A program made the position numbers and the translations under genes. From NCBI GenBank assembly GCA_963729985.1, contig CAVSPJ010000002.1, positions 394,015 to 458,014 of the forward strand: DNA of 64,000 nt, written 5' to 3'. The notes under the pieces are model-generated. The model did not search any database and had not been told where the DNA came from. It was given only the letters and a program-made list of their open reading frames with translations. Below, one piece after another: positions 44,485 through 62,198 of the stretch (within the stretch, counting starts at the first letter, position 1; each line of letters starts with the position of its first letter). The DNA is from an uncultured Gemmatimonadales bacterium. GTDB taxonomy: Bacteria; Gemmatimonadota; Gemmatimonadetes; Gemmatimonadales; GWC2-71-9.

Positions 44485-44540
44485 TTGACGATCAGGTACT
44501 TCGGCATATATTCGGTGAGCGATACCGAACGAAACCCGAA
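44485..44540 (+). promoter_or_regulatory. Promoter + operator, site A (SOS-like box) upstream of the zinc-ribbon ORF / radical SAM operon
   Basis: TTGACG (44485-44490), 16 nt, TATATT (44507-44512), 10 nt, then TACCGAACGAAACCCGAA (44523-44540). Confidence 0.65.
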
Positions 44541-44554
44541 GCAACGGACGCCTC

Positions 44555-44734
44555 ATGCTCTTCCTCGACCCTCTCCGCAAACTCGGCCAGCGCCGCACGC
44601 CAGCCCTCAAACCGACGACCTACTACGTCCCCGTCGTTCATTCGGTCAGAGTCTGCCCCGAATGCGCCGGGCCCCTGACCAACGCGTCCGGCTGTATCGG
44701 CTGCGTGTACTGCGGATGGGGGCGGTGCGGGTGA
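44555..44734 (+). CDS. Small zinc-ribbon protein (59 aa, unlisted ORF)
   Basis: MLFLDPLRKLGQRRTPALKPTTYYVPVVHSVRVCPECAGPLTNASGCIGCVYCGWGRCG*. Very high GC3, with CxxC...CxxCxxC...C motifs. Its TGA is in a GTGA overlap with the radical SAM start. Confidence 0.6.
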   Translation: MLFLDPLRKLGQRRTPALKPTTYYVPVVHSVRVCPECAGPLTNASGCIGCVYCGWGRCG

Positions 44735-45804
44735 GCCAATCGGCGCAGTTTACGCTGGCGGTCGGGCCGAGCGCCGAACGCCCGCAAGAGCTCACCGTGC
44801 TCGACGAGCGGGAGCGCGGTACCCAGTTCCTCTCGCTCGGGGTCCGGTCCGTCCTCAACTCGCCGGCCAGTACCGGCATGGGCTTCTGGTCGATCAATCC
44901 CTACGTCGGCTGCGAATTCGGCTGCACGTATTGCTACGCGCGCGATACTCATCGGTACGCCACCGAGCGGGCACAAGGCCGGACGGGCCGACGGGCGGAC
45001 GGCGATCACGAGCTGCCGCCCTGGCTCGCCTTCGAGAAGCGGATCCTGGTCAAGACCGATATCGCCGAGCGGCTCGCGCGGACGCTGGACGCCGCGAAGA
45101 TGGGTGACGACACGCTCGTCATCGGCACCGCCACCGATCCCTATCAGCCGGCGGAGCGCCGCTATCGCCTCACCCGGAGCATCCTCGAGGTCCTCACCCG
45201 CTTTCGGGGGCTGCGCATCGGGATCATCTCCAAGTCGCCGCTGGTCACCCGCGACATCGACCTGCTGCAGGGGCTCGGCGCCCGGCACGAGGTCACGGTC
45301 AACGTCTCGCTCTCCACGCTGGACTCCCGCCTCGCCCGCAGGCTGGAGCTTCGCTCTCCGGTTCCCTCCGCCAGAATCCGGGCCCTGGCCCGGCTCAGCG
45401 CGGCCGGGATTCACGCCGGGCTCCTGATCGCCCCGATCGTTCCCGGGGTCACCGACGATCGCGAGGGATTGAGTCGGCTGATGGCGGCGGCGAAGGAAGC
45501 CGGTGCCCGCTACGTGGTCGGGTCGGCGCTCCGGCTCGGCCCCGCGGCGCGGCATCGCTTCCTTCCCCACCTCGCCACCGAGTTTCCCGACCTCGCCGAG
45601 CGGTACCGGCGCCACTACGGTGGCCGGGAGGGGGTCAGCCCGGAGTATCAGGCGGCGCTCACCCGGCGTCTCGAGCAACTGCAGCGCGAACACGGATTCC
45701 CGGCCGACGAAGAGCGGCGCCGGCGAGCGCAGCTGGAGGGCCGCCGCACCGCCGGCGCCGGTGCGACGGGACAGCCTGCTCTTCCACAGCCTGCTCTTCT
45801 ATAG
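44731..45804 (+). CDS. Radical SAM protein, SplB / 'DNA repair photolyase'-like (PA0069 family)
   Basis: ...FWSINPYVGCEFGCTYCYAR... (CxxxCxxC). Overall length is about 357 aa. The N-terminal 99 codons of ORF 44434..45804 were rejected. Confidence 0.85.
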   Translation: MSQSAQFTLAVGPSAERPQELTVLDERERGTQFLSLGVRSVLNSPASTGMGFWSINPYVGCEFGCTYCYARDTHRYATERAQGRTGRRADGDHELPPWLAFEKRILVKTDIAERLARTLDAAKMGDDTLVIGTATDPYQPAERRYRLTRSILEVLTRFRGLRIGIISKSPLVTRDIDLLQGLGARHEVTVNVSLSTLDSRLARRLELRSPVPSARIRALARLSAAGIHAGLLIAPIVPGVTDDREGLSRLMAAAKEAGARYVVGSALRLGPAARHRFLPHLATEFPDLAERYRRHYGGREGVSPEYQAALTRRLEQLQREHGFPADEERRRRAQLEGRRTAGAGATGQPALPQPALL

Positions 45805-45833
45805 AAAAGATCGAAGGCGACGAGCTCGGGGCA

Positions 45834-46871
45834 TCAGCCGGCTCGGCGTGCAGGAAGACTAGGCCGCAAGACCGCCCCGAACATCGCCGCCGGAAGCCCG
45901 CCGCGGCGCTGCCTTGCCAGCGCCGGAATGGCGCGCTCCAGGGTCGAGCCATCCAGGATCGTCTCGTCGTCCTCACCGCTTTTCCCGCCTGGCTGCCTGC
46001 TCTCGCGGGTGAAGATCACGGCCGCCACCACCAGCATCGCCGCCACCCCGGCGCGGGCCGACAGCGCTCCGTCGCCCACGGCCCACGCCAGTCCGAGCGC
46101 GACCACCGGATTGACGAAGGCATAGCTGCTCACCGCGGCGGCGGAGGTCACCCGCAGCAGCCAGGTGTACGCCCCGAATCCGAGTACCGTCCCGCCGAGA
46201 ATCAGGAAGACCATCGCCAGTGACGCGCGCACGGTGACCTCCGCGGGCCTCCAGCCCGCCGGCTCGCCGAAGGCGATGCTCGCGACGAGCAGCGCCAGCG
46301 CACCGGCACCCAACTGCATGGCGGTGGACTGCGCCGCGGGCAGCGGGCTGCCCGCCCGCCGCACCACCAGCGTACCCACCGCCCAGAAGAGGGCGCTCAG
46401 GATGAGCACCGCCCGCGCGACGAGCCCGCCCGACACTCCCTCACCCCCGGTGAGCACCGCGACCCCCGCGACGCCGAGCAGTAGGCTCAGCACCACACGG
46501 CGGGAGGGCGGACGACGGAGCAGGATGGAGTCCAGGGTGACGAGCCAGAGCGGAATCGCGGTCATGAACAGCGCCGCCTCCCCCGACGACACCCGCTGCT
46601 CGGCCCAGGCGAGCAGACCGTGGCAACCCAGGAAGAGAAGGGCGCCGGCCACGCCGGCGGTGAGCCATTGCGCGCGGGTGGGGCGCACCAGCGTTCCCCG
46701 CCAGGCGAGCCAGGCGAAGAGCAGCGCGGCTCCGCCCGCGCAGCGCAGCACCATCGTCATCAGCGGTGGGATGTCCACCACCGCGTAGCGGATGGCGAGG
46801 AAGGTCCCGCCCCACATCAGGTAGATGGCGGCGAACGCGCCGACCAGCCGGGCGCGGAAGGAAGCGGTCAC
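45834..46871 (-). CDS. EamA/DMT family transporter
   Basis: 10-TM pattern with two EamA repeats. GTG 46871 is in a GTGA overlap with the upstream gene's stop. Confidence 0.8.
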   Translation of the reverse strand: MTASFRARLVGAFAAIYLMWGGTFLAIRYAVVDIPPLMTMVLRCAGGAALLFAWLAWRGTLVRPTRAQWLTAGVAGALLFLGCHGLLAWAEQRVSSGEAALFMTAIPLWLVTLDSILLRRPPSRRVVLSLLLGVAGVAVLTGGEGVSGGLVARAVLILSALFWAVGTLVVRRAGSPLPAAQSTAMQLGAGALALLVASIAFGEPAGWRPAEVTVRASLAMVFLILGGTVLGFGAYTWLLRVTSAAAVSSYAFVNPVVALGLAWAVGDGALSARAGVAAMLVVAAVIFTRESRQPGGKSGEDDETILDGSTLERAIPALARQRRGGLPAAMFGAVLRPSLPARRAG

Positions 46872-47203
46872 GGGGTGGGCGCCTCCGCGCTGGATGCGAC
46901 CTCGCTGAACACGACCTCGTAGTGGTTGACGTGGTGGTCCCGCGCGACCAGGAAGCGCTCGTCCTCGGGAAAGAAGACCGCGCGGCCGATGTCGTCGCCG
47001 GCGAAGCGCCGGATCGCGTCCTCGGAATCCCACAGGCTGAGCATGAGGAACTCCGCCCGGTCGCCCTCGATCCGCCGGAGCGTCAGGGCGCCGCGGTTTC
47101 CCGGTGTCGCGCGGAAGGCGGCGTGACCGGTGGCGTGGAGGTAGTCGAGATAGGCGTCGGCGTCCGCGGCTCGGGTGGCTCCAGCCCAGGTACGAGCAAT
47201 CAT
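46868..47203 (-). CDS. ABM (antibiotic biosynthesis monooxygenase)-like small alpha+beta barrel protein
   Basis: 111 aa. The pattern ...GNRGALTLRR...EFLMLSLWDSEDAIRRFAG... is typical of ABM/Dabb-fold proteins. The assignment is tentative. Confidence 0.6.
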   Translation of the reverse strand: MIARTWAGATRAADADAYLDYLHATGHAAFRATPGNRGALTLRRIEGDRAEFLMLSLWDSEDAIRRFAGDDIGRAVFFPEDERFLVARDHHVNHYEVVFSEVASSAEAPTP

Positions 47204-47260
47204 GGTGTTTCCTCCTCTAGCGTGGATCGATCGGCCAATCGCACCGGTATATGACGCTTT

Positions 47261-47295
47261 ACAGGTGCAAACTTGTCATTCAGGTCTGCACCTGT
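47261..47295. promoter_or_regulatory. Perfect 9-bp inverted repeat ACAGGTGCA-N17-TGCACCTGT in the divergent ABM / CGNR intergenic region
   Basis: Read directly from the sequence. A third CAGGT copy lies at 47281-47285. The region is AT-richer than its flanks. Confidence 0.45.
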
Positions 47296-47327
47296 CAAGA
47301 GCCGAATACTGGTGTTATCTTTCCGGC

Positions 47328-47957
47328 ATGACTCACGCCGCCCTCATTGCCGAGCCCGCCGTCCTCTACGTCGGCGGCGATCCAGCCCTTGACCTGGTCA
47401 ATACCGTGGACTGGACCGCGTGGGGCCCGGTGGAGGAGCGGATCCCCGACTACGAGCGGCTGACCCGCTGGGCAGAAGGCGCCGGCGTGCTCGACGCGGC
47501 CGCCGGGCGGCGGCTCCGGCGGCTGGCCGCGGAGCGGCCGAGAGCGGCGGCTGCCGCGGTGGAGTACGCCCGGCGCGCGCGGAAGACGCTCCGTGATCTC
47601 TTCGGCGGGATCGCGCGCGGCGAGTTGCCGAGCGATGCCCTGCCCCGGTTCAACCAGCTGCTGGCCGAGGCCGCGGAGCGGATTGAGATGGCGCCGGAGG
47701 CGGGGGGTCGCCGGCCTGCCGGGTACGACTGGCGTTGGCGGGGCCAGGACTCGGACCCCCGCGCCGTCGTGTGGCCGGTCATCTGGTCGGCCGCGAATCT
47801 GCTCCGGTCGGACGAGCTCGGGAAGCTGCGGGTGTGTGACGGCGACAACTGCGGCTGGATGTATGTCGACCGGAGCCGCAACGGGTTCCGCCGTTGGTGC
47901 CAGATGAAAACCTGCGGTACCCGGGAGAAGACCCGCCGGCGGCGCGGGTCGCCTTGA
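47328..47957 (+). CDS. CGNR zinc-finger (ABATE-domain) protein
   Basis: The C-terminus ...LRVCDGDNCGWMYVDRSRNGFRRWCQMKTCGTREKTRRRR matches the CGNR zinc-finger signature. Confidence 0.8.
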   Translation: MTHAALIAEPAVLYVGGDPALDLVNTVDWTAWGPVEERIPDYERLTRWAEGAGVLDAAAGRRLRRLAAERPRAAAAAVEYARRARKTLRDLFGGIARGELPSDALPRFNQLLAEAAERIEMAPEAGGRRPAGYDWRWRGQDSDPRAVVWPVIWSAANLLRSDELGKLRVCDGDNCGWMYVDRSRNGFRRWCQMKTCGTREKTRRRRGSP

Positions 47958-48009
47958 CCGTCCCTCCGGCCGGGGGCATTATTCGAGCGAATACCGAATA
48001 AATCCCGAA
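47954..48009 (+). promoter_or_regulatory. Promoter + operator, site B (SOS-like box) upstream of the Y-family polymerase gene
   Basis: TTGACC (47954-47959), 17 nt, CATTAT (47977-47982), 9 nt, then TACCGAATAAATCCCGAA (47992-48009). The GTG start is at 48030. Confidence 0.65.
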
Positions 48010-48029
48010 AGCCGGAGATCCTCCAGTCC

Positions 48030-49250
48030 GTGTCTCGCACCATCCTCTTCATCGATCCCCCAGCCTTCTGCACTACCGTCGAAGCCCTGGTGGCCCCCGG
48101 GCTCCGGACCCGTCCGGTAGCGGTGGCCCCGCCCGGTGCCGAGCGCGCCGTGGTGCTCGCGCTGTCGACCGAGGCGAGGCGGGCGGGGATCGAGCGGGGC
48201 ATGGCGGTGCGCCAGGCGCGGAAGCTCTGCCCCGACCTGGTGCTCATCCCGCCCAATCCCCGGCTGTATGCCCGGGCCTCGAGCGCGCTGCACGAGATCC
48301 TGCGCGCCTACGCGCCGGTCATCGAGCCACGGGGCTACGGGCACGCGTTCCTCGATCTCACCGGCACCGGCCGGCTCCTCGGTGCTCCGGCCGATGTCGC
48401 CGCGCGGGTGCGGCGCGAGGTGCGCGAGCGGCTGCGATTCCCGCTCTCGGTGGGCGTCGCCGCCAACAAGCTGGTGAGCCAGGCGGTGGTCCGGGCGGAC
48501 CGCTGGTCGGACGGGGGCGACGGCGACGAGCTGATCGTTCCCTTCGGCGTCGAGGCGGGATTCCTCGCGCCCCACCCGCTGGTCGTCCTCCCCGACCTGC
48601 ATCCCAAGATGCGAAGCCGGCTCGACGACTATCAGCTCGATCTGATCGGCGAGGTGGCGGCGATTCCCGAGAGCGCGCTCTGCGCGGTCTTCGGCGGCAC
48701 CGGGCGCGCGCTGCGCGCGCGCGCGATGGGCATCGATCCCCGCCCCGTGCTCCCGCCCGAGCGGCTGGCCGAGCTCAGCGCCGCGCACATCCTCACCACC
48801 GACACCAACGATCTCGGCGTGCTGCATCCGCTGCTCCGGATGCTGACCGCGCGGCTCGGCCGGCGGCTTCGCCGTGCCGGTCTGGTCGCCCGGCGGCTCC
48901 GGCTCGAGATCGGCTATGCGGATCATACCGACTCCGCCCGAGCGGCCCGGCTCGGCTCGTCCCCGCTCGACGCAGACCTGTGGGATGCCGCTCGCCAGGC
49001 GTTCGCCCTGGCCAACAACAAGCGCATCGCGGTGCGCGGCATGACGGTGAGCCTGGAGCGGGTGGAGGAAGCGAGCGCGCAGCTGGGGTTGTGGGATGGG
49101 CTGGAGGGTGGAACGGATAGCGCCGTCCGTCCCGCCCTCCAAAGCGCCCTCGACCGCATTTACTCCCGCTACGGCACGAGAGGCCTGACGCGAGGGAGCC
49201 AGCTCGGCAATGGATCCACGCCTGAATCTTTTCCGGTGGGCATTGGGTAG
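48030..49250 (+). CDS. Y-family DNA polymerase paralogue lacking two of the three catalytic carboxylates (ImuB-like)
   Basis: The fold matches DinB (ILFIDPPAFCTTVE...IEPRGYGHAFLDLTG...SVGVAANKLVSQ). Where E. coli DinB has DMDCFF and SLDEAYLDVT, this protein has DPPAFC and GYGHAFLDLT. Confidence 0.8.
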   Translation: MSRTILFIDPPAFCTTVEALVAPGLRTRPVAVAPPGAERAVVLALSTEARRAGIERGMAVRQARKLCPDLVLIPPNPRLYARASSALHEILRAYAPVIEPRGYGHAFLDLTGTGRLLGAPADVAARVRREVRERLRFPLSVGVAANKLVSQAVVRADRWSDGGDGDELIVPFGVEAGFLAPHPLVVLPDLHPKMRSRLDDYQLDLIGEVAAIPESALCAVFGGTGRALRARAMGIDPRPVLPPERLAELSAAHILTTDTNDLGVLHPLLRMLTARLGRRLRRAGLVARRLRLEIGYADHTDSARAARLGSSPLDADLWDAARQAFALANNKRIAVRGMTVSLERVEEASAQLGLWDGLEGGTDSAVRPALQSALDRIYSRYGTRGLTRGSQLGNGSTPESFPVGIG

Positions 49251-49281
49251 AGGATAGAGGTCCACCTTCCAGGAGATCCTC

Positions 49282-50757
49282 ATGTCCCATCCCACCGCCC
49301 GGGCGCCGCGTCTCTCTTCGCTCGCGATCGCCGCGCTGATCGCGTCCGCGCCATCCGCGGCCGCCCAGACGGCGCATTCAGCCGGGAAGGTTCCAATCAG
49401 CACCACGTCCACCGAGGCCAAGGCCGATTTCGTCAAAGGGCGCACACTCGCGGAGAACCTGCGGGCCCACGACTCACGCGAATTCATGCTCCGCGCCATC
49501 GCCAAGGACCCCGACTTTGCGCTGGCTCACCTGAGCCTGGCCAACAGCGCCCCGACAGCGAAGGAGTTCTTCAGCCACCTCGGCCACGCCGTCGCCCTCG
49601 CCGGCAAGGCGTCCGCTGGCGAGCGTCTCATGATTCTCGGCGCCGAGGCCGGCGCCAATGCCGATCCGGCCAAACAGGTGGAGCTCTATCAGAAGCTGGC
49701 GGCCGAGTTCCCCGAAGACGAGCGGGCGCACTTCCTCCTCGGTACCACCTATTTCGGACAGCAGGAGTACGGCAAGGCGATCGAGCAGTACCAGCGGTCC
49801 ACCGCGATCGCGCCCGATTTCGCTCCTGCCTACAACATCCTGGGCTACGCCTACCGCACCGAAGGACGCTTTGACGACGCGGAAAAGGCGTTCAAGAAGT
49901 ACATCGCACTGATCCCGGACGATCCCAATCCCTACGACTCCTACGCCGAGTTGCTGCTGAAGACGGGGCGGTTCGACGAGTCCATCGCCCAGTACCGGAA
50001 GGCGCTCGACGTGGATCCCCATTTCGCGGCGTCGTTCATCGGCATTGCCAGCAATCTCATGTTCCAGGGCAAGTACGACGCCTCCCGCGCCGAGGCTCAG
50101 AAGCTCTACGCCGCCGCGAGGAACGACGGCGAGAAGCGGGCGGCGATGTTCCAGGTGACGACGACCTACGTCGAGGAGGGGAAGCTCGACCTCGCGCTCG
50201 CCGAGCTGGACAAGCAGTACGCTCTGGGCGACAAGATCGGCGACGCCGCCGCGATGTCGGGCGACGCGACGCTCATGGGCAACATCCTCCTCGAGGCCGG
50301 GAAGCCGGCGGAGGCGCTGAAGCGGTTCGAGCAGGCGGTGCGGGTCGTGGAGGCCTCGCGGCTTTCCGCCGAGGTCAAGGAAAACACCAAGCGGATCCAC
50401 CGCTACAACGTGGCCCGGGTCGCGCTCGCCACGGGGGACCTCGTGAGGGCGAAGCGCGAAAGCGACGCCTTCATGAAGGAGAGTCAGGCCCGGAAGAACA
50501 GCTTTCAGATCCGGCTGGGCCACCAGTTGGCCGGTATGATCGCGCTGAAAGAGAGCAAATACGACGCCGCGCTGGCCCAGCTGGAACAGGCTAACCAGCA
50601 GGATCCCTACAACCTCTACCGGATGGGCCTGGCCTACGAAGGCAAAGGCGACGGCGCCAAGGCCAAGGAGATGTTCCACAGCGCGGCGAACTTCAACCAG
50701 CTCCCGAATCTCAACTCGGCGTTCGCGCGGGAAAAGACCCGGAAGCTCGAGGCCTAG
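49282..50757 (+). CDS. Secreted TPR-repeat protein
   Basis: Signal peptide ...AALIASAPSAAAQ, followed by many 34-aa TPR units (e.g. AHFLLGTTYFGQQEYGKAIEQYQRSTAIAPDFAPAYNILGYAY). Confidence 0.8.
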   Translation: MSHPTARAPRLSSLAIAALIASAPSAAAQTAHSAGKVPISTTSTEAKADFVKGRTLAENLRAHDSREFMLRAIAKDPDFALAHLSLANSAPTAKEFFSHLGHAVALAGKASAGERLMILGAEAGANADPAKQVELYQKLAAEFPEDERAHFLLGTTYFGQQEYGKAIEQYQRSTAIAPDFAPAYNILGYAYRTEGRFDDAEKAFKKYIALIPDDPNPYDSYAELLLKTGRFDESIAQYRKALDVDPHFAASFIGIASNLMFQGKYDASRAEAQKLYAAARNDGEKRAAMFQVTTTYVEEGKLDLALAELDKQYALGDKIGDAAAMSGDATLMGNILLEAGKPAEALKRFEQAVRVVEASRLSAEVKENTKRIHRYNVARVALATGDLVRAKRESDAFMKESQARKNSFQIRLGHQLAGMIALKESKYDAALAQLEQANQQDPYNLYRMGLAYEGKGDGAKAKEMFHSAANFNQLPNLNSAFAREKTRKLEA

Positions 50758-50766
50758 CCGCGGCGG

Positions 50767-51744
50767 TCACCACTCCACTACCAGCTTCCCGAAGGTCTCG
50801 TTCGACTCCATGACCCGGTGGGCCTCGGCCAACCGGGTCATCGGGTAGGTGGCCTGCAGGACGGGCCGGAGCGGCGCCGCCTGCTCGATCCGCCGGTCGA
50901 AGAGCGGGAGCATCCGCTGGGCGAACTCCTCGATCAGCGCCTTCCGCTCCTCCAGGCTCCGCACCCGCATGGCGGTGCCGATCACTTCCAGCCGCTTCCG
51001 CACCATCGGACCGAGGTCTGCCGTGGTGCGGCTTCCGGCCAGGAACCCGAGCAGGACCAGGCGCCCTCCCGGCGCGAGCACCGCCAGGTTGTCGCCGAAC
51101 GCCGGGCCACCGATCGCGTCGAGCACGACGTGCACCGGCTCGCCCACGGCGTCGCGGAACGGCGTTTTGCTGGTATCGATGCCGGTGTCGAGTCCGAAGA
51201 CCAGCGCGCGGACCAGCTTGTCGGCGCTGCGGGAGGTGCCGATCACCGTGGCACCGAGGTGCTTGGCGATCTGTGAGGCCGCCGTGCCGACGCCGCTCCC
51301 GACCGCATGGATCAGCACTCGCTCGCCCGGGCGGAGCCGTCCCCGGGTGACCAGCGCGTCATACGCGGTGAGGAACACCTCGGGGATCGCCGCCGCCTCC
51401 GCGAAGGAGAGGCCGTCGGGGATCGCGAGCGCCTCGTCCGCGTGGACCGTGAGCAGCTCGGCCTGCGCGCCGCCGCCCACCAGGCCCATCACCCGGTCGC
51501 CCACCTTCCAGCGCGCCGTGTCTCGCACTGCCTCGACCTCGCCGGCGTACTCCAGGCCCGGAATATCGGCCGGCCATCCCGCAGGCGCCGGGTAGCGCCC
51601 GAGGCGCTGGAGCAGATCGGCGCGGTTGAGTCCGGCGGCGCGCACCCGGACGCGGATGTAACCGGGCTTTACTTCCGGGTTGGGGACCTCCCCGATCGAG
51701 ATTACCTCCGGCCCGCCGGCGCCGGTCAGGACCACCGCTCGCAT
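50767..51744 (-). CDS. NADPH:quinone oxidoreductase (zinc-independent MDR family, Qor-like)
   Basis: MRAVVLTGAGGPEV...GLNRADLLQRLGRYP...PGLEYAGEV...VLIHAVGSGVGTAA.... The start is at ATG 51744, not the ORF-track start 52014. Confidence 0.85.
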   Translation of the reverse strand: MRAVVLTGAGGPEVISIGEVPNPEVKPGYIRVRVRAAGLNRADLLQRLGRYPAPAGWPADIPGLEYAGEVEAVRDTARWKVGDRVMGLVGGGAQAELLTVHADEALAIPDGLSFAEAAAIPEVFLTAYDALVTRGRLRPGERVLIHAVGSGVGTAASQIAKHLGATVIGTSRSADKLVRALVFGLDTGIDTSKTPFRDAVGEPVHVVLDAIGGPAFGDNLAVLAPGGRLVLLGFLAGSRTTADLGPMVRKRLEVIGTAMRVRSLEERKALIEEFAQRMLPLFDRRIEQAAPLRPVLQATYPMTRLAEAHRVMESNETFGKLVVEW

Positions 51745-51751
51745 CGCAGGG

Positions 51752-52255
51752 CTATTCCAGGCCCAGCGGGGCCGGCTCCTCCGCCCGTGGCCGCAGGCGG
51801 TCGTTGCGCGCCAGGAGCCGGACACAGGTGTTCCACCGCAGGATGGCCTCGTCGTTCCCGGGCGGACGCCGGGACTCCGCCTTCTGGTACCAGTCCATCG
51901 CCTCTCGCAGCCAGTGGTAGGCGGTCTCCTCCGACCCCGGCGTGTCCGGCCGGATCTGCGCCTTGGCGCAGCGCTCGCAGATGATCCCCGCGTAATACGC
52001 CTGCTTGTACTCATCCTCCAGCCGGGGGAGCACTTCCCTCGCCCGCCGGGCGCCTTCGGTGGGCCCGGTCGCGAACTGGTCGGTGATGGCCAGCAGCAGC
52101 GTCACCAGCGCCTCCTGGTTTGCCGGGTCCACCGCCAGTACGTCGAGACAGATGCTTTCCGCCGAGGTGGGGTCGTTGATGATCCGGTACCGCTCCGCTT
52201 TCTGGAGCGCCAGCGGCACCGCGGCGGCGGAGATGGGCCTGAGTTCGAACGTCAC
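51752..52255 (-). CDS. Hypothetical helical protein translationally coupled to sdhB
   Basis: GTG 52255 is in a GTGA overlap with the sdhB stop, with GGAGG 9 nt upstream. 167 aa of non-shadow composition (..AERYRIINDPTSAESICLDVLAVDPANQEALVTLLLAITDQF..). Confidence 0.6.
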   Translation of the reverse strand: MTFELRPISAAAVPLALQKAERYRIINDPTSAESICLDVLAVDPANQEALVTLLLAITDQFATGPTEGARRAREVLPRLEDEYKQAYYAGIICERCAKAQIRPDTPGSEETAYHWLREAMDWYQKAESRRPPGNDEAILRWNTCVRLLARNDRLRPRAEEPAPLGLE

Positions 52256-54905: not shown

Positions 54906-54927
54906 GGATGGACGACCGGGGCTAGGC

Positions 54928-55731
54928 TCAGAATATCCTCCAGTCGGTCCAGACGCCCGTCGAGCAGAGCCGGATGTACAGATCGGCGAAGGCCACGGAC
55001 AAAAGGCTGGTCCAGGCCCATCGCATGTGCGCCCGGTTGAGACAGCTCGAGCAATCGTAGGCCCGCCGGCGTACCGGTGAGCCGGAGAGGCGGTCGAGGT
55101 AGCCGCCCACGACGTGCCGCATGGAATGGCAGCCCAGGGTGTATCCGGCAAGCAGCGCCAGGTTGGCGGCCAGCACCAGCGTCCCGACGCCGATCCCGAA
55201 TTCGGTCCGGCCGGTGGCAGGATCGGTGAACCAGAGAGCCTGGTACACGTCGTAGGTGAGCACGACCAGGAAGAGGAGCGCGATGTAAAGCAGGTAGCGG
55301 TGGATGTTCTGCACGATGAGCGGAAACGACGCCTCACCGCGATACCGGGTTCGCGGCTCGCCCACTGCGCACGCGGGCGGATCCGCCCAGAACGCCTTGT
55401 AGTAAGCGCCGCGGTAGTAGTAGCAGGTCACTCGAAAGAGGCCCGGGAACGGCAGGATCAGCAGGGCCGGCGAGAACACCAGCCACGCCGGCCACCAGGT
55501 CGGCTTGGGGCCGAGCCAGGCATGAGGCGAGTCGCCGAACAGCTCCGGAGAGTAGAAAGGAGAGAGATAGGGGCCCGAGGTGTAATGCGCGCCCTGGAAC
55601 GCGGCCCACGTGGCATAGATGATGAAGGTCGAGAGGATCACCAGCACGATCGCCGGCTGAAGCCACCACAGGTCTTGGCGGGCGGTCTCGCCGAACCGAC
55701 GCCGGATCACGGGGAGTTGGGCATGCGCCAT
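54928..55731 (-). CDS. sdhC: Succinate dehydrogenase membrane anchor / cytochrome b subunit (large single-subunit, actinobacterial Sdh1-like type)
   Basis: 267 aa, polytopic, His-containing helices, located directly upstream of sdhA. The type is assigned from size and synteny. Confidence 0.7.
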   Translation of the reverse strand: MAHAQLPVIRRRFGETARQDLWWLQPAIVLVILSTFIIYATWAAFQGAHYTSGPYLSPFYSPELFGDSPHAWLGPKPTWWPAWLVFSPALLILPFPGLFRVTCYYYRGAYYKAFWADPPACAVGEPRTRYRGEASFPLIVQNIHRYLLYIALLFLVVLTYDVYQALWFTDPATGRTEFGIGVGTLVLAANLALLAGYTLGCHSMRHVVGGYLDRLSGSPVRRRAYDCSSCLNRAHMRWAWTSLLSVAFADLYIRLCSTGVWTDWRIF

Positions 55732-55848
55732 GCTGAGACCCTCTCCTCGGAGTACAAATCGAGATCCTGTGCGTCGTTGCCGAACGGGGGGCGGAAAGCC
55801 AGCAGGGATATTCGGGCGGCCACCGGGGGCCTGTCAACCAAGCCCCGC

Positions 55849-55877
55849 TTGACACGAGTTAGGTAGTTCGATAACTA
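55849..55877 (+). promoter_or_regulatory. Candidate promoter (TTGACA-17-TAACTA) with an embedded palindrome TAGTT-N4-AACTA upstream of the ArsR-family gene
   Basis: TTGACA at 55849-55854, TAACTA at 55872-55877, palindrome at 55864-55877. The GTG start is at 55885. Confidence 0.4.
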
Positions 55878-55884
55878 TCATATT

Positions 55885-56217
55885 GTGAGCACTAGAATGG
55901 GAACCCGAGTCGGGCTCACGCCCGGGCAGTTCGACCTCATCGCCAAGGCCTTGGCCGACCCGCGGCGGGTGGCCGTGCTCCAGGCCATCGCCGACGAGGA
56001 GTCCTGTCCCTGCCAGCACCTGACGGACCAGTTTCCCGTGTCCAAGGCGACGATTTCGCATCACATCAAGGAGTTGGTCCGCGCCGGCCTGGTCGAGGCT
56101 CGGCGAGACGGCCAGTACCTGAACTGCCAGGTGCGCCGGGAAGTGCTCGAGGCCTACACGGCGGAGTTGCTGCAGCGGGTGGGCGGCGAGCCGAAAAACC
56201 TCAGCCCGAAATCGTAG
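55885..56217 (+). CDS. ArsR/SmtB family transcriptional regulator
   Basis: ...LADPRRVAVLQAIADEESCPCQHLTDQFPVSKATISHHIKELVRAGLV... is a wHTH containing a CxC pair. Confidence 0.85.
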   Translation: MSTRMGTRVGLTPGQFDLIAKALADPRRVAVLQAIADEESCPCQHLTDQFPVSKATISHHIKELVRAGLVEARRDGQYLNCQVRREVLEAYTAELLQRVGGEPKNLSPKS

Positions 56218-56340
56218 ATGGCCGACCGGCTCGGAATCCCGGGGCTTCTTTCGGCAAATAGTATGGCAGTTGTACAACCCTCGAATCCAAGAACACGCCC
56301 CTTCCAACCGAGCGAGACCGCCCAAGAGCGGTGAGGACTC

Positions 56341-57795
56341 ATGCGTAAGGCAACGATCTGGCTCGTGCTTCTCCTGAACGCCTGCGCCTCGGCAGCGGCG
56401 TATCGTAACCCGCAGGTAGAGATCCCCGTCGCATTCAGAGAGCGGCTCGACAGCCTCGCTTCACCCGCGGTGCCGGCGGCGCCCGCGGAGGCGGAGGTGC
56501 CGGATGCCGTTCCAATCGTGGCGGGAGATACCGTCACTCCGGTAGGCGAGTATTGGCGCGCACTGAACGACACCACCCTCATTCGGCTGCTCGCCCAGGC
56601 GCTCAACGGCAACCTCGATGTCGAGGTCGCGCGCGCGCGGATCAGCGGAGCCCGGGCCGCCAGACTCGACGCGACGCTCGACTTCGTGCCGACCGTGACC
56701 GCCGTGGGCGGCTACACCAGGCAGCGACTCGCCGGGGCCACCTTCCCTATAGGCGGCGGAAGTTTCCCCGACCAGAACATCTGGGACGCAGGGTTCGACG
56801 CCTCGTGGGAGCTGGACCTCTTCGGCCGGATCCGCCGCGGGGTGCAGGCGCGGGGCGCGCTGCTGGGCGCCGCGGAGGAGGACCTGCGAAACGTGCGGGT
56901 GTCGCTCGCCGCCGAGCTGGCTCGGGTCTACTTCGAGCTGCGCGGAGCGCAGGAGCAGCTGGCGGTGTCGCAGCGCAACGGCGAGAACCAGCGCCGCACG
57001 CTGGAGCTCACCCGGCAGCGACTCGACGCGGGTCGCGGCACCGCCTTCGATACCGAGCGGGCGCTGGCGCAGCTGAGCATCACCCTGGCGTCCATTCCGG
57101 CTCTCGAGGCCCAGGTCGCCGCCGCGCAGTACCGCATCGGCGTCCTGGTCGGCCGGCCGCCGGCGGCGGTCGCGGGCGAGCTGGACTCGATCACCCCCAT
57201 GCCGGCCCTCCCGGCCACGGTCACGATCGCCGCACCGGATTCGCTCATCCGCCGGCGCCCCGACGTGGCCGCCGCGGAGCGCAGGGTCGCGGCCGAGCAC
57301 GCCTTCGTGGGTGCCGCCAAGGCGGATTACCTCCCCCGGCTGAATCTGGGCGGCAGCGCGGGCTTCTCATCGGCGGAGCTCGGTGACTTCGGCGGCGATG
57401 GCACGTTCCGCTACGCGGTCGGGCCCGTCATAACCTGGCCGGCGCTCAATCTCGGACGGGTGAAGGCGAGAGTGGACGCATCCCGGGCGCTCGAAGCGGA
57501 GGCGAGAGCGCAGTACAATCAGGCGGTGCTGAGCGCCCTGGAGGAAGTCGAGACCACGCTGGTACGCTACCGGAGCTCGCTGAACCGCGTGGATCGCTTC
57601 GAGGAGGCCGCGCTGGCCAGCGCGCGCGCGGCGGACCTCGCCCGCCTCCGGTTCACCGGGGGCGTGGCGGACTTCCTTCAGGTGCTCGACGCGGAGCGGA
57701 CCCAACTCGAGTCCGAGGATCAGCTCGCGCGGGCCCGTACCGAGGCGTCGACCAGCTATGCCGCGTTGTACAAGGCGCTGGGCGGAGAGACCTGA
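56341..57795 (+). CDS. Efflux outer-membrane factor lipoprotein (NodT family); second paralogue, with no adjacent pump
   Basis: Lipobox LLLNACAS. OEP repeats are collinear with the OMF at 22980..24431. Confidence 0.85.
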   Translation: MRKATIWLVLLLNACASAAAYRNPQVEIPVAFRERLDSLASPAVPAAPAEAEVPDAVPIVAGDTVTPVGEYWRALNDTTLIRLLAQALNGNLDVEVARARISGARAARLDATLDFVPTVTAVGGYTRQRLAGATFPIGGGSFPDQNIWDAGFDASWELDLFGRIRRGVQARGALLGAAEEDLRNVRVSLAAELARVYFELRGAQEQLAVSQRNGENQRRTLELTRQRLDAGRGTAFDTERALAQLSITLASIPALEAQVAAAQYRIGVLVGRPPAAVAGELDSITPMPALPATVTIAAPDSLIRRRPDVAAAERRVAAEHAFVGAAKADYLPRLNLGGSAGFSSAELGDFGGDGTFRYAVGPVITWPALNLGRVKARVDASRALEAEARAQYNQAVLSALEEVETTLVRYRSSLNRVDRFEEAALASARAADLARLRFTGGVADFLQVLDAERTQLESEDQLARARTEASTSYAALYKALGGET

Positions 57796-57796
57796 T

Positions 57797-58729
57797 TCAA
57801 CGCCTGGTCCACGCCCGCTCCTGCCAGAGGTGCAGGGCGGCGTAGCTGCGCCAGGGTCGCCAGGCCTCCGCGATTTCTTCGGCCCGCGTCGCGGTAACCC
57901 CGCCGAGACTGTTCCGCACGGCGAGATCGCCATGGGGAAACGCGTCCGGCCACCGAAGCGCGCGCATCGCGATGTACTCCGCGGTCCATCGGCCGATGCC
58001 GGGCAACGCGACCAGCTGGTGCATCACGTCCTCGGGCTGCGCGCAGGGCGCCAGGGTCAGCCTGCCGGACGCCATCTCCCGTGCCAGGGCGATGATGCTC
58101 TCGGCGCGCGGTCGCATGATGCCTAGCGCCGTCAGTTGCTCCACCTGGGCCTGCGCGATCTGCTCGGCGGTGGGCGAGAGCCGCGTCAGCCCCGGATGCG
58201 CCGTCTCGATCGGCTCGCCGAACGCCTCGACGAAGCGCCCGGCCAGCGTCGTGGCGCCTTTCACCGTGATCTGCTGGCCCAGAATGGCCCGCACGGCCAG
58301 CTCGAACCCGTCGAATGCGCCCGGCACGCGGAGGCCCGGATTTCTCGCCACCGTCTCGGCCAACACTCCCCGCATCAGCCGCTCGGCGATGACATTGGGC
58401 TTGGCGCTCAGGTCGAAGAGCTGCCCCAGTCGGGGAAGCAAGGCGGGAACCGCCGGGGCCAGGGACTGACTCAGCTCGATCACCAGGGCCCGCTGCCCAG
58501 GCGAGTTGTGAACGTGGAGCCACCCGGAAAACTCGCCGACCCGGGCGGTCCGGAGGTATTCCGCTCCCCGAACCCATTCCACCCCCCTGAGCATGCGCGC
58601 GCCGAGGAACCGCAGCATTCCCGGCCAGTCGAACGGCGGGCGATAGGTCAGCTGCCAGCGGAACAGCTTGGGCTGAGTTGGGGGAAGGGACCGTGCGGGG
58701 AGCGTCATCGTTCCAGGCAATGCCTCCAT
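57797..58729 (-). CDS. alkA: DNA-3-methyladenine glycosylase II (AlkA-like: AlkA_N + HhH-GPD)
   Basis: ...LTYRPPFDW...LRFLGARMLRGVE... (AlkA_N) and ...AILGQQITVKGA...LVALPGIGRWTAEYIAMRAL...PHGDLAV... (HhH-GPD with catalytic Asp). The start is placed at ATG 58729; ATG 58708 is the alternative. Confidence 0.8.
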   Translation of the reverse strand: MEALPGTMTLPARSLPPTQPKLFRWQLTYRPPFDWPGMLRFLGARMLRGVEWVRGAEYLRTARVGEFSGWLHVHNSPGQRALVIELSQSLAPAVPALLPRLGQLFDLSAKPNVIAERLMRGVLAETVARNPGLRVPGAFDGFELAVRAILGQQITVKGATTLAGRFVEAFGEPIETAHPGLTRLSPTAEQIAQAQVEQLTALGIMRPRAESIIALAREMASGRLTLAPCAQPEDVMHQLVALPGIGRWTAEYIAMRALRWPDAFPHGDLAVRNSLGGVTATRAEEIAEAWRPWRSYAALHLWQERAWTRR

Positions 58730-58881
58730 CCCCGCCGATTGCCGCTCGATGTCCCCAAGCGCATCCGACGCGGCCGAGAGTGAATCGGGCGGCGAGCTTG
58801 AATGATCGGGAATCCCGCTGACGTCGCCATCGCCAATTGGCATGGTCCTGCCATGACCACTGCTCGTTCTGACCATGCTCC

Positions 58882-58934
58882 TTGACGCGGATCCGAGAAT
58901 ACCCGACATTAGCGAGTACCGAATATAACCCGAA
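58882..58934 (+). promoter_or_regulatory. Promoter + operator, site C (SOS-like box) upstream of the tag / hydrolase operon
   Basis: TTGACG (58882-58887), 17 nt, GACATT (58905-58910), 6 nt, then TACCGAATATAACCCGAA (58917-58934). Confidence 0.6.
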
Positions 58935-59002
58935 GATTGCTATCGGCTCTTCGGGCGGCGACACCGCTGACGGCACCGACAATCCAGAGCACCGGAGCCC
59001 GG

Positions 59003-59563
59003 ATGGGCACATCCTATTGCGACATCGCTTCCAGCCACGAATGGCACGGACCGTATCACGACCACGAGTACGGCTTCCCTCTCGATGCAGACGCCGCGCT
59101 GTTCGAGCGCCTGATGCTGGAGATCAACCAGGCCGGCCTCTCCTGGCTCACCATCCTCAAGAAGCGCGACGCGTTTCGCCGGGCCTACGACGGCTTCGAT
59201 CCGGAGCGCGTTGCGGCGTACACCGCGCGCGACCGTCGGCGCTTGCTGGCCGACGCGGGCATCGTGCGCAACCGGCTCAAGGTCGAGGCGGCCATCACCA
59301 ACGCGGCGCGCATCCTCGAGCTGCGCCAGAGCCATGGGTCGTTCGCCGGCTGGCTGGCGGCGCACCATCCTCGATCGAAGGAGGAGTGGGTCAAGCTCTT
59401 CAAGCGCACCTTCCGCTTCACCGGTGGCGAGATCGTGGGCGAGTTCCTGATGAGCATCGGCTATCTGCCGGGCGCCCATACGGAAACCTGTCCGGTGCAC
59501 CGCCGGATCATGAAACAGCGGCCGCCCTGGTCCCGGCTGGCGCGCGCGGGTGGAGCGCGATGA
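59003..59563 (+). CDS. tag: DNA-3-methyladenine glycosylase I
   Basis: ...YHDHEYGFP...LFERLMLEINQAGLSWLTILKKRDAFRRAYDGFDP...GIVRNRLKVEA... is collinear with E. coli Tag. Confidence 0.85.
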   Translation: MGTSYCDIASSHEWHGPYHDHEYGFPLDADAALFERLMLEINQAGLSWLTILKKRDAFRRAYDGFDPERVAAYTARDRRRLLADAGIVRNRLKVEAAITNAARILELRQSHGSFAGWLAAHHPRSKEEWVKLFKRTFRFTGGEIVGEFLMSIGYLPGAHTETCPVHRRIMKQRPPWSRLARAGGAR

Positions 59564-60321
59564 GGCGCGTCGTGGGTCCGGCGGGCAAGCTCACGGTGGA
59601 CGACGGCGGCACCGGCGATCCGATCGTCCTGGTCCACTCCCTGGCCGGCAACACTGGTCACTGGTCCGGACAGCTCAAGCATCTGCGGCAAACGCGGCGG
59701 GCGGTGGCGCTCGATCTTCGCGGGCATCGCCGGTCGGACGGGCCGGCCGACAACGACTACTCGATGGAGGCACAGGCGGGAGATGTGGGCGCCGTGGCCG
59801 ATGCGCTGGGCCTCGCGCGCTTCGCGCTCGTGGGGCACAGCATGGGAGCGGGGGTGGCGCTGGCGTACGCGGGGGCGCATCCCGAGCGCGTCAGCCATCT
59901 TCTCGTCGCCGACCCCATCGGCGACGGCACCCAGACTCCCGAGGCGGAAGTCCGCCCCTTTCTCGATGCGCTCGAGTCGCCGACCTACACCGACACCATC
60001 GAGGGCTACTGGAGCAGCATCGCCGGCTCCGACGGCACCGTGCTCGAGCGGCTGCTGAACGACCTGCGGGAAACGCCGCGGGAAACGGTGGTGCGCGGGC
60101 TCCACGCGGTGATGGCGTTCGATCCCAAGCCCGCGCTCGCACAGTTCCACGGTCCCACGCTCGCGGTGATCACGCCCGCGAACGATTTTCCCTACAGCAT
60201 GCACAAGCTCGGCGCGGGCCTACCCCACCGCGTCGTCACGGGCACCGGCCACTGGCTCCAGTTCGACCGGCCGGCGGAGTTCAATCGGATTCTGGAGCGG
60301 TTCCTGGAGGGAGAGACGTAA
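59560..60321 (+). CDS. Alpha/beta hydrolase
   Basis: ATG 59560 is in an ATGA overlap with the tag stop. ...IVLVHSLAGNTGHW...LVGHSMGAGVA... (GHSMG elbow)...GTGHWLQFDRP. Confidence 0.85.
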   Translation: MRRVVGPAGKLTVDDGGTGDPIVLVHSLAGNTGHWSGQLKHLRQTRRAVALDLRGHRRSDGPADNDYSMEAQAGDVGAVADALGLARFALVGHSMGAGVALAYAGAHPERVSHLLVADPIGDGTQTPEAEVRPFLDALESPTYTDTIEGYWSSIAGSDGTVLERLLNDLRETPRETVVRGLHAVMAFDPKPALAQFHGPTLAVITPANDFPYSMHKLGAGLPHRVVTGTGHWLQFDRPAEFNRILERFLEGET

Positions 60322-60667
60322 CGGCTTGACGCGTAAGAGACGGAGAGGGTGGGCTGGTTCACTTCTCCCACTGGGCAGAAGGTTGTAGCTAGGTCTCAAT
60401 TTTTTCCGTCTATGGTCGACACCTGCCGAAGCGTGGCGGGAGCGGTTGGCCCGCTGTCCGTGCTGGCTTGACAGCCCCCGCACTGCGCCGTATGTCAGCC
60501 TCTATCTTCCCTGCGACCAGAGTCAACCGGCGAAAACCCGCACCGCAAAGCCAAGTGTCCTCGGGTTGCTCCGCGACCGGCGCAGGCCGCTTCTGACGCC
60601 ACGAAGACCCCAAGAGCGCCCAGCTACCGAAAGCTTAGCCCGTAGTTTGCTTTGGCCGGAGGTCGCG

Positions 60668-62017
60668 ATGACGCGGATCGGTTCCATTCCATTCCCGGCT
60701 GCTTTCCCTTTGCCGAGAGGCAGGCGACTGCGCTGGTTCACCCACCGACTCGCTTCCGTGCTCGCCCCGGCCTTGGTGGTGGCCGCCCTGGGCTGCCGAG
60801 AGGACCCCGAGCCGCCCACGGCGCCGGAGTCGGCGCTCGCTGTGACGCCGGCCCTTACGCTCCGCTTCCGCCAGGTGACTGCGGGCGAGGAGCACACCTG
60901 CGGCGTCACCACCGGTAACGTGACCTACTGCTGGGGGTGGAATACCGTCGGCGAGTTGGGGATCGGCACCGACACGGGGCCAGAGACCTGCTCCGACCTT
61001 CCCTGCAGCACCAGGCCAGTGCGGGTCGTTGGCGGGCTCGCCTTCCGCCAGGTGAGCGCGGAGGGCGGCAGCCACACCTGTGGCGTGACCACGGACCACC
61101 GGCTGTACTGCTGGGGCCTCAACCACCTCGGCCAGCTCGGTGACGGCACGGGTACGGACAGCCCACGGCCAGTGTGGGTTGCCCCCAGGCTCGCCTTCCG
61201 CCAGGTGAGCGCGGGCAGCATCCACACCTGCGGCGTAACGACGAACAATGTGGCCTACTGCTGGGGCCACAACCAGGCCGGCGCGCTCGGCAACGGCACG
61301 ACCATTTCGACCCTGCGGCCAGTCCGGGTCGCCCGCAGGCTCGCCTTCCGCGAGGTGAGTGCAGGCACGCAATTCACTTGCGGCGTGACGACGGACAATG
61401 TCGCCTACTGCTGGGGCCTCAACTTCGGGCAGCTGGGCAACGGTACCGCCACCGGGCCGGAGTCATGCTTCACAGGCGATGGATTCAATGCCTGCAGCAC
61501 CAAGCCGATCCGGGTGGCCCGTCGACTGGCCTTCGGCCACGTGGATGCGGGTGCCGACCACACCTGCGGTGTGACGACGGATGATGTCGCCTATTGCTGG
61601 GGCGCCAACTCTGCCGGTCAGCTGGGCGACGGCACGACCAACGGCCGCTTGAAGCCGGTCCGGGTCGCCCGCCGGCTCGCCTTCCGCCAGGTGAGCGCGG
61701 GCGAGCAGCACACCTGCGGGGTGACGGTCGAAGATGTCGTCTACTGCTGGGGCCTCAACCTTCTCGGGGAGCTGGGCATCGGCACCGACACGGGGCCGGA
61801 GATATGCCCCTTCTTCGACGCACCCTGCAGCACCAGGCCAGTGCGGGTCGGCGGCGGACTCGCCTTCCGCGAGGTGAGCGCGGAAGGCAGCGTCCACATA
61901 TGTGGCGTGACCACGACCAAGCTCGCTTACTGCTGGGGCATCAATTCCGTGGGCCAGCTCGGGGACGGCACCACCCAGACGCGCCTGAGGCCGCGCCGGG
62001 TTGCCGGCAGCACTTGA
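60668..62017 (+). CDS. RCC1-repeat (seven-bladed beta-propeller) lipoprotein
   Basis: Lipobox VVAALGC. Seven units of about 50 aa: F(R/G)xVSAGxxHTCGVTTxxxxYCWGxNxxGQLG(D/N)GT...PVRV. Confidence 0.85.
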   Translation: MTRIGSIPFPAAFPLPRGRRLRWFTHRLASVLAPALVVAALGCREDPEPPTAPESALAVTPALTLRFRQVTAGEEHTCGVTTGNVTYCWGWNTVGELGIGTDTGPETCSDLPCSTRPVRVVGGLAFRQVSAEGGSHTCGVTTDHRLYCWGLNHLGQLGDGTGTDSPRPVWVAPRLAFRQVSAGSIHTCGVTTNNVAYCWGHNQAGALGNGTTISTLRPVRVARRLAFREVSAGTQFTCGVTTDNVAYCWGLNFGQLGNGTATGPESCFTGDGFNACSTKPIRVARRLAFGHVDAGADHTCGVTTDDVAYCWGANSAGQLGDGTTNGRLKPVRVARRLAFRQVSAGEQHTCGVTVEDVVYCWGLNLLGELGIGTDTGPEICPFFDAPCSTRPVRVGGGLAFREVSAEGSVHICGVTTTKLAYCWGINSVGQLGDGTTQTRLRPRRVAGST

Positions 62018-62142
62018 TACCTGCGGCGACAAGGGACCCAGGAGCGGATCGCAATCGAGGCAGCATCCAACTCGGAGCTGCCGCCGGCACTCGGGATGGG
62101 GGGTGAAGCTGTTTTCGGGCATCCCTATATACCCGTAGCCGC

Positions 62143-62198
62143 TTGACGCTTCCCGCCCGGGCGGTACATTCGGTGGAGATACCGAACAAAAACCGAAC
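62143..62198 (+). promoter_or_regulatory. Promoter + operator, site D (SOS-like box) upstream of dnaE2
   Basis: TTGACG (62143-62148), 16 nt, TACATT (62165-62170), 9 nt, then TACCGAACAAAAACCGAAC (62180-62198). The GTG start is at 62213. Confidence 0.65.

Follow-up and report, generated by a model that had tools for sequence, protein, structure and literature searches.

LexA-binding motifs vary by phylum, and direct repeats have been documented among them, such as GTTC-N7-GTTC in Alphaproteobacteria, with further ones known from Patescibacteria and Balneolaeota (PMC8565304, PMC7739468, PMC9578287). The GTTC-N7-GTTC form is found in Caulobacter, Rhodobacter and Sinorhizobium, and also, through lateral transfer, in Acidobacterium capsulatum (PMC8565304, PMC9578287, PMC7739468). 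The Balneolaeota box, the direct repeat TTACACATATTTTWTACATA, was deduced by comparative genomics and validated by electrophoretic mobility shift assay, and translesion polymerases and a radical SAM protein are members of the corresponding regulon; the same article cites the Patescibacteria LexA operator as a case of direct-repeat recognition (PMC7739468). SplB-like radical SAM enzymes and ImuB and DnaE2 are established SOS-linked genes (PMC3765255, PMC3919608). Here we describe a CCGAA direct repeat that accompanies four promoters in a stretch of 64,000 nucleotides (nt) from an uncultured Gemmatimonadales bacterium (hereafter the window), and which, judging from sequence comparisons, is very probably the LexA operator (SOS box) of this Gemmatimonadota bacterium. 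The Gemmatimonadota are abundant in soil and little studied. In the literature searched, we found no description of a LexA or SOS box for this phylum, nor of its DNA-damage regulon. What is new here is thus a probable LexA operator for a phylum in which none had been defined.

The initial annotation of the window had aligned four promoter-repeat sites (A to D), and all four were found as it had placed them (Table 1), with the layout TTGAC(G/C), a 16–17-nt spacer, a -10-like hexamer, 6–10 nt and then TACCGAA-N6-CCGAA. The consensus box, TACCGAAYAAAWNCCGAA, is a direct repeat of CCGAA with a period of 11 base pairs (bp): the CGAA tetramers are spaced by 11 nt in all four sites, as annotated, and in the lexA boxes described below; the reading of site D as GAAC-N7-GAAC was likewise borne out. 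The sequence TACCGAA-N6-CCGAA has exactly four matches in the window, all on the + strand, compared to 0.00 expected (none of 100 dinucleotide-preserving shuffles contained a match). The looser CGAA-N7-CGAA has six matches, five of them inside the four sites, compared to 1.8 expected. When up to two mismatches were allowed, the sole additional match within the four promoters was an inverted copy in promoter A (box A1 in Table 1). The inverted TTCGGT half-site noted earlier in site A is part of this complete second box. Mismatch and matrix scans of the 64,000 nt yielded no further strong copy of the motif, in agreement with the annotation, and because the G+C content of the window is 69%, the A/T-rich boxes are conspicuous. 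The -35 elements had been described as near-consensus. A consensus scan of positions 44300–62400 called just three sigma-70-like promoters, those of sites A, B and D; site C was missed because its -10 hexamer is too weak. The distance from the -35 to the box differs by 3 nt among the four sites, and when transcription start is taken about 7 nt past the -10, the box begins within about 3 nt of the predicted start in all four promoters.

Table 1. Promoters, boxes and downstream genes in the window (scores in bits are those of a matrix built from lexA boxes alone).
Feature	Positions	Strand	Description
Promoter A	44485–44512	+	-35 TTGACG 44485–44490, 16-nt spacer, -10 TATATT 44507–44512; 10/12 consensus matches
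Box A1, inverted LexA-type box	44500–44517	-	CACCGAATATATGCCGAA, 1 mismatch; covers the -10 of promoter A; 11.5 bits, rank 6 in the window
Box A2	44523–44540	+	TACCGAACGAAACCCGAA; about +3 to +21 of the predicted transcript; 14.3 bits
Small Zn-ribbon open reading frame	44555–44734	+	59 amino acids, first gene of operon A; ...RVCPECAGP...GC..C..CGW..CG
Radical SAM gene	44716–45804	+	Rv2578c/PA0069/SplB-like 'DNA repair photolyase' type; Radical_SAM 3e-17; SPL weak
Promoter B	47954–47982	+	-35 TTGACC, 17-nt spacer, -10 CATTAT 47977–47982
Box B	47992–48009	+	TACCGAATAAATCCCGAA; 21.3 bits, highest score in the window
Y-family polymerase homologue, ImuB-like	48030–49250	+	IMS 1e-38, IMS_C; Pol IV models all under cut-off
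Promoter C	58882–58910	+	-35 TTGACG, 17-nt spacer, weak -10 GACATT 58905–58910
Box C	58917–58934	+	TACCGAATATAACCCGAA; 17.8 bits
tag (DNA-3-methyladenine glycosylase I)	59003–59563	+	Adenine_glyco 2e-40; TIGR00624; ATG 59003 is the probable start
259-amino-acid open reading frame 3' of tag	59550–60329	+	possibly co-transcribed with tag
Promoter D	62143–62170	+	-35 TTGACG, 16-nt spacer, -10 TACATT 62165–62170
Box D	62180–62197	+	TACCGAACAAAAACCGAA; reads GAAC-N7-GAAC; 17.0 bits
dnaE2 (error-prone DnaE-type polymerase)	62213–64000	+	GTG start 62213; extends beyond the window; PHP, DNA_pol3_alpha

Neither lexA nor recA was found in the window by tblastn, as the annotation had stated, and lexA promoters were therefore examined in related genomes. 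The LexA protein of locus L022 (L-numbers are labels of the loci and contigs fetched in this analysis) was used to collect Gemmatimonadota homologues, of which 30 were aligned, and the alignment served to fetch metagenome lexA loci by protein similarity, the motif not being used. A LexA with 69% or more identity to the query is encoded at 13 loci, of which L099 is truncated by the contig end and lacks upstream DNA. In each of the other 12, the Gemmatimonadota-type loci whose upstream DNA is readable, TTGACT-TTCGGnnTTTGTTCGG stands 70–115 nt before the lexA ATG and precedes a -10-like hexamer. It corresponds to the window box in reverse complement (ACCGAACAAAnnCCGAA-AGTCAA) and fills the spacer between the -35 and the -10; its second repeat is always CCGAAA. 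The same lexA-promoter box is found in L022 and in GCA_035550715.1 and GCA_035633635.1, two metagenome-assembled genomes (MAGs) labelled Gemmatimonadota at the National Center for Biotechnology Information. When a matrix made from the lexA boxes alone was run over the window, sites B, C, D and A took ranks 1–4 of the 128,000 positions on both strands, the background having a mean of -31 and a standard deviation of 9 bits. Because the same repeat stands in the lexA promoter of related genomes, and autoregulation is the hallmark of LexA, the box is very probably a LexA site. The presence of the box at 12 of 12 lexA loci in relatives supports the SOS/LexA-type reading that the initial annotation had put forward.

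The Gemmatimonadota LexA proteins contain the LexA_DNA_bind (PF01726) and Peptidase_S24 (PF00717) domains, and VAAG, GDSM and K158 are invariant in the 30-sequence alignment, so that the Ala-Gly cleavage site and the serine of GDSM are retained together with the lysine required for RecA-stimulated self-cleavage. Among the fetched loci, recA was detected (tblastn, E. coli RecA) only in the non-Gemmatimonadota L087, L127 and L139. The Gemmatimonadota lexA gene is divergent from the trp operon, and the first codons annotated for trpC (..SEQNPKVK..; L169 9920–9961, L172 2204–2228, L089–L098) overlap with the lexA -35 and box: either the annotated trpC starts lie too far upstream, or the operator is situated within coding sequence.

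In a wider clade of LexA proteins, whose named members include Vicinamibacteria, 'Deltaproteobacteria' MAGs and Gemmatimonadaceae, TTCG-N7-TTCG lies no more than 160 nt from the start, on the lexA strand, in 62 of the 76 lexA loci, compared to a background of 0.07 per kilobase (kb) with both orientations counted. The motif therefore tracks the LexA protein and not a neighbouring gene. We infer binding by LexA; another damage-responsive regulator might bind the box and control lexA as well, such as an XRE/DdrO-type repressor, a WYL/PafBC-type factor or the product of the ABATE + zf-CGNR gene (47175–47957), a putative stress regulator gene that ends at promoter B. LexA-independent damage regulons are indeed found in other phyla (PMC8072749, PMC12288472, PMC10693628). 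However, the box is present in every Gemmatimonadota-type lexA promoter examined, the same word is found at the lexA gene of Patescibacteria, which encode a LexA with a similar DNA-binding segment, and the frequency of TTCG-N7-TTCG in the lexA promoters of the multi-phylum clade far exceeds its background. As the architecture also fits the known direct-repeat LexA boxes (PMC8565304), we consider control by a regulator other than LexA unlikely.

Several other ways of reading the element were considered. A matrix match at 47980–48001, a candidate third repeat in site B, is a shifted partial match without the 11-bp phasing and was discarded. A palindrome of fixed spacing, made of the TTCGG after the -10 and the first CCGAA, was also rejected: the spacing from TTCGG to the start of TACCGAA is mostly 12–13 nt and ranges from 6 to 14 nt, and the lexA boxes have no inverted partner. 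As this spacing is variable and the partner is missing at lexA, the direct repeat, not the palindrome, is the common unit. In all four window sites the box lies on the sense strand within the predicted 5' untranslated region, a position that would suit an element acting as RNA, either a leader motif recognised by a protein or a regulatory fold. However, no consensus structure emerged for the four leaders (0 pairs, 0 kcal/mol) and the window has no Rfam match, on which grounds this reading was rejected; moreover, the motif at lexA and the second box of promoter A lie on the opposite strand or 5' of the start. A role as RNA is thus extremely improbable. The four sites can be aligned over about 55 nt, which might suggest that they are left over from a dispersed repeat, or from a promoter duplicated recently, and share no regulation. 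Yet their likeness is limited to the -35, the -10 and the box, the spacers being wholly different, and the arrangement precedes orthologous genes in dozens of genomes with only 75–85% nucleotide identity, so that we give this explanation almost no weight.

To determine how the box is distributed, the pattern TTGAC-N28-35-TACCGAAYNWAWNCCGAA was searched in one genome per species of 185,579 species. The -35 was added to the box in this pattern, which biases the matches toward the promoter layout of the window; lexA was for this reason met only once among the Gemmatimonadota matches. The scan gave 87 matches, 70 from MAGs labelled Gemmatimonadales or Gemmatimonadota and 17 from outside. Seven of these 17 are from Patescibacteria, six of them at lexA, and the others are about at the chance level for the information content of the pattern, by our own estimate and not by a computed value. 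A scan of viral contigs returned one low-GC match (L001), which was treated as chance. The classified Gemmatimonadota-type sites number 71, including L045, a contig labelled Acidimicrobiia with the same Zn-ribbon and radical SAM genes. They lie at the Zn-ribbon and radical SAM pair (32 sites), dnaE2 (13), the gyrB leader (7), the ImuB-like Y-family polymerase (5), a radical SAM gene alone (3, Palauibacter), a small conserved HGWYCEHG protein (3), and tag, the class II ribonucleotide reductase gene nrdJ, a DinB_2-family protein and a gene divergent from lexA (1 each); four have no assigned gene, two of these being cut by a contig end. Hence 60 of the 71 stand at lexA-divergent, translesion synthesis, radical SAM, tag, nrdJ, DinB_2 or HGWYCEHG genes, and seven more at gyrB.

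In 590 kb of Gemmatimonadota DNA, a broader matrix scan found 56 further matches, nearly all of which fall on lexA boxes, on the second, inverted box of a Zn-ribbon promoter, or on variant boxes at orthologues. As these further matches are nearly confined to lexA and the same gene families, the box is not a general promoter feature and does not occur at many unrelated promoters of the 590 kb; in the 185,579 species genomes, the promoter-plus-box module is nearly restricted to the Gemmatimonadota and to SOS-type genes. Orthologues missed by the exact pattern but carrying variant boxes include the Zn-ribbon gene (L078, L012), the Y-family gene (L008, L033, L006) and tag (L049, L050, L051, L026); boxes at tag orthologues are found in these four loci and in L055. 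When orthologous dnaE2 and Y-family promoters are aligned, conservation ends directly 5' of the -35 and is limited to the -35, the -10 (with an adjoining CGG), the box and the coding start. The -10 and its CGG are kept in 13 orthologous dnaE2 promoters, the -10 not being part of the selection pattern.

The position of the box depends on the gene: it lies downstream of the -10 in the window promoters, between the -35 and the -10 at lexA, and both over the -10 and just downstream of it in Zn-ribbon promoters. The dnaE2 gene of L081 has its box in the lexA-type layout, inverted and between the -35 and the -10. The two-box arrangement, one inverted over the -10 and one just downstream, is seen at 20 of 75 Gemmatimonadota sites, nearly all Zn-ribbon promoters (the window, L003, L018, L021, L033, L036, L047, L048, L053, L061, L069, L072, L077, L081, L085, L086 and others). 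Such paired opposite boxes suggest that two LexA dimers are bound and that the Zn-ribbon/radical SAM operon is the most tightly repressed. This diversity bears on the idea that the element belongs to the promoter proper, for example as a discriminator or initially transcribed sequence, or that an activator or an alternative sigma factor acts on it, and that it is not a repressor operator. A strong -35/-10 pair always accompanies the element, and its distance from the -10 is nearly fixed in the window (6–10 nt). However, its position and orientation are gene-dependent, as seen in the window promoters, at lexA, at the dnaE2 gene of L081, in Zn-ribbon promoters and in the gyrB leaders (about +17), its spacing from the -35 varies by 3 nt in the window, and it is missing from the other promoters of the 590 kb. 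We therefore hold a promoter or activator element to be very improbable: the occurrence of the box in either orientation and at several core-promoter positions fits a DNA-bound repressor, and not an RNA element or a sigma-factor contact.

Four observations also weigh against LexA as the regulator or limit the evidence for it. The lexA test was run on relatives, since the lexA and recA genes of the window genome lie outside the window. At many loci the divergent trpC, as annotated, extends with its 5' end into the lexA box, and coding constraint could explain part of the conservation of the box there; the box is unchanged in L022, L100 and L097, where the upstream neighbour differs. In the 70 pattern-selected sites, the box and the -35 are conserved by construction. 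Finally, tag is a variable member of the regulon, 8 of the 14 orthologues examined having no box. Taking all this together, a LexA operator remains by a wide measure the reading that we favour.

In the mechanism that we infer, most likely a classical SOS circuit with LexA as the binding protein and with predicted transcription starts, repression and induction, LexA on the box would block the binding of RNA polymerase or its escape from the promoter, because the box begins within about 3 nt of the predicted start. Promoter A would probably be repressed more tightly through its second, inverted box over the -10. Upon DNA damage, RecA filaments would stimulate LexA self-cleavage, and the loss of LexA would de-repress four units: the Zn-ribbon and SplB-like radical SAM genes, the ImuB-like gene, tag and dnaE2. 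The SplB-like radical SAM enzyme and Tag would then serve in lesion repair, and the ImuB-like protein and DnaE2 in mutagenic bypass. Such a regulon content is ordinary for an SOS system.

The downstream genes were examined individually. The Zn-ribbon open reading frame of operon A, which precedes the radical SAM gene at 32 Gemmatimonadota-type loci, shows a weak match (NCBIfam, E=1.5e-5) to the Zn ribbon at the C terminus of B12-dependent ribonucleotide reductase. In L041, a box precedes a full NrdJ that has such a Zn-ribbon tail. The ATG of the radical SAM gene (44716) overlaps the end of the Zn-ribbon open reading frame, and its product scores 1.9e-63 against rSAM_Rv2578c, under the curated cut-off. 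When the Y-family protein is aligned with E. coli DinB, the residue equivalent to D8 is kept and D103/E104 are replaced by G/H; because this catalytic D-E pair is replaced, the label ImuB-like given in the initial annotation is justified and the homologue is predicted to be catalytically dead. The best NCBIfam model for the dnaE2 product is NF004225, 'error-prone DNA polymerase', with a score under the cut-off because the window end cuts the protein. The open reading frame 3' of tag had been called a hydrolase, a label that was not upheld, as it matches no Pfam or NCBIfam family; its nucleotide sequence is conserved along with tag in L010 and L051. The window and several Gemmatimonadota-labelled MAGs share gene order, with 75–86% nucleotide identity, which places the window in this phylum.

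Additional observations were made around these genes. The ABATE/zf-CGNR gene ends at the -35 of promoter B, and the same position of its 3' end is conserved in L012, L078, L008 and L033. A 523-amino-acid protein with RCC1 repeats (beta-propeller), without obvious link to DNA repair, is encoded between the tag operon and dnaE2 (60446–62017), and the order tag, 259-amino-acid open reading frame, RCC1-repeat gene and dnaE2 is common to the window, L010 and L051. Operons with LexA-type boxes are loosely clustered, within 16–28 kb on one contig, in the window and in the contig pairs L012/L035, L019/L033, L060/L073 and L055/L069 of Gemmatimonadales MAGs. In about 17 genomes, the ImuB-like gene lies directly 3' of the radical SAM gene, yielding a single box-controlled Zn-ribbon/radical SAM/ImuB-like operon (L007, L021, L032, L036, L048, L050, L054, L058, L059, L067, L069, L073, L074, L077, L080, L081, L085), and no ImuA was recognised in these genomes; the radical SAM pair may cooperate with the mutagenesis proteins. 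In L003, L018 and L061, arrays of GTTCAC-type heptamers, e.g. TTCACTGTTCACAGTTCACTGTTCACG, are present in place of the box about 20–100 nt 5' of the Y-family gene, with inverted blocks in L003 and L018. The gyrB-leader box is in the lexA orientation (TTCGGTATTTATTCGG) and was seen in seven MAGs, three of them labelled Gemmatimonadaceae (L023, L038, L042, L062, L064, L082 at 3712–3727, and L088); within the recF-DUF721-gyrB region, it follows a TTGCCA-N17-TATATT promoter and sits at about +17, with the gyrB ATG about 30 nt further on. As an SOS target, gyrB would be unusual. The small HGWYCEHG protein (C-terminal ...HLVFFDRHGWYCEHGR.CPAV..AKKH), behind a box in L016, L031 and L084, has no family match and is a candidate new SOS protein.

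We also considered a wider LexA recognition mode, which we put forward only tentatively and which we think is more likely wrong than right. In this scheme, the LexA clade with the recognition segment S(S/L)(V/L)ATVH(E/K)H (Gemmatimonadota, Vicinamibacteria (Acidobacteriota), 'Deltaproteobacteria' MAGs and Patescibacteria) would read TTCG(G) units phased by 11 bp, arranged in pairs, in inverted pairs of pairs (promoter A) or in arrays of three to four units across the lexA promoter. In some lexA promoters of the clade (L102–L168, e.g. L119, L121, L132, L134, L141, L161), three to four TTCG units phased every 11 bp extend across the -35 (TTCG..TTGACTTTCG..TATATTCG). No description of such a phased-TTCG(G) mode was found in the literature searched. 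If true, it would imply head-to-tail, possibly cooperative LexA binding along one face of the helix, and the Gemmatimonadota mutagenesis module, without recognisable ImuA, would comprise the Zn-ribbon, SplB-like radical SAM, ImuB-like and DnaE2 proteins and might reach gyrB.

At a practical level, a defined SOS box would make damage-inducible genes predictable in any Gemmatimonadota genome or MAG by a matrix scan. The Zn-ribbon protein and radical SAM enzyme would be the most frequent SOS target of the phylum, and their frequent association in a single operon with the ImuB-like gene suggests a functional link. The phased-repeat pattern and this operon are the parts most worth following up.

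Compared with described systems, the window resembles the imuA-imuB-dnaE2 cassette (PMC3919608) in that LexA-type boxes precede both the gene of an inactive Y-family homologue and dnaE2; in contrast to that cassette, the ImuB-like and dnaE2 genes are split, 14 kb apart. No ImuA family match was found among the open reading frames adjoining either gene, ImuA' being poorly covered by profile libraries. The Balneolaeota box is likewise a direct repeat in a little-studied phylum, but its sequence is unrelated to that of the Gemmatimonadota box. Sites A and D have the same first half-site, CGAAC, as the Gram-positive and actinobacterial box CGAAC-N4-GTTCG, and the regulons overlap in dnaE2, imuB and the Rv2578c-type radical SAM family, named for a mycobacterial gene. 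However, the four sites have no inverted partner 4 nt away, the second half-site being a direct copy 11 bp downstream, and GAAC-N4-GTTC is present in none of the 76 related lexA promoters. The Gemmatimonadota box thus bears on the shift of LexA from palindromic to direct-repeat recognition, since it would combine the Gram-positive first half-site with a direct copy one helical turn away.

The likeness to the alphaproteobacterial box is in the architecture: both are direct repeats with an 11-bp period and a TTC/GAA core, and the Gemmatimonadota box, like the alphaproteobacterial one, would control mutagenesis genes of the dnaE2/imuB type. They differ in sequence, as the Gemmatimonadota unit is CCGAA (TTCGG) and not GTTC, and the base after the first repeat is C/T and that after the second mostly A/G. 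Only site D has GAAC in both repeats, the others reading GAAC/GAAG (A), GAAT/GAAA (B) and GAAT/GAAG (C). The recognition helix of alphaproteobacterial LexA (SKSGIHRLI...) probably also differs from the SSVATVHEH of Gemmatimonadota. The Gemmatimonadota box would work like the alphaproteobacterial box, but is not the same motif.

The LexA operator of Patescibacteria was reportedly treated by Sanchez-Osuna, Barbe and Erill in 2017 (Environ Microbiol 19:3465). In six Patescibacteria genomes (L011, L020, L030, L034, L046, L087), the searched word TACCGAAYAWAWNCCGAA stands directly 5' of lexA; in L030 and L034, TTGACA-TCTTCGGTTTTTGTTCGG-TAATGT has the same layout as the Gemmatimonadota lexA promoter, and CATGTTCGGTTTATGTTCGG-TATAAT is also seen at Patescibacteria lexA. 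A consensus DnaA box, TTATCCACA, lies about 20 nt 5' of the lexA operator/promoter in three distant Patescibacteria (L011, L046, L087). The LexA proteins of the two phyla share the DNA-binding segment GYAPS.EEI..HF.LSSVATV.EH. Patescibacteria boxes, in contrast to those of Gemmatimonadota, read GTTCGG in both repeats and belong to another phylum and another regulon; nevertheless, the lexA sites of Patescibacteria, as read from the loci collected here and not from the published motif, are the closest to the Gemmatimonadota box.

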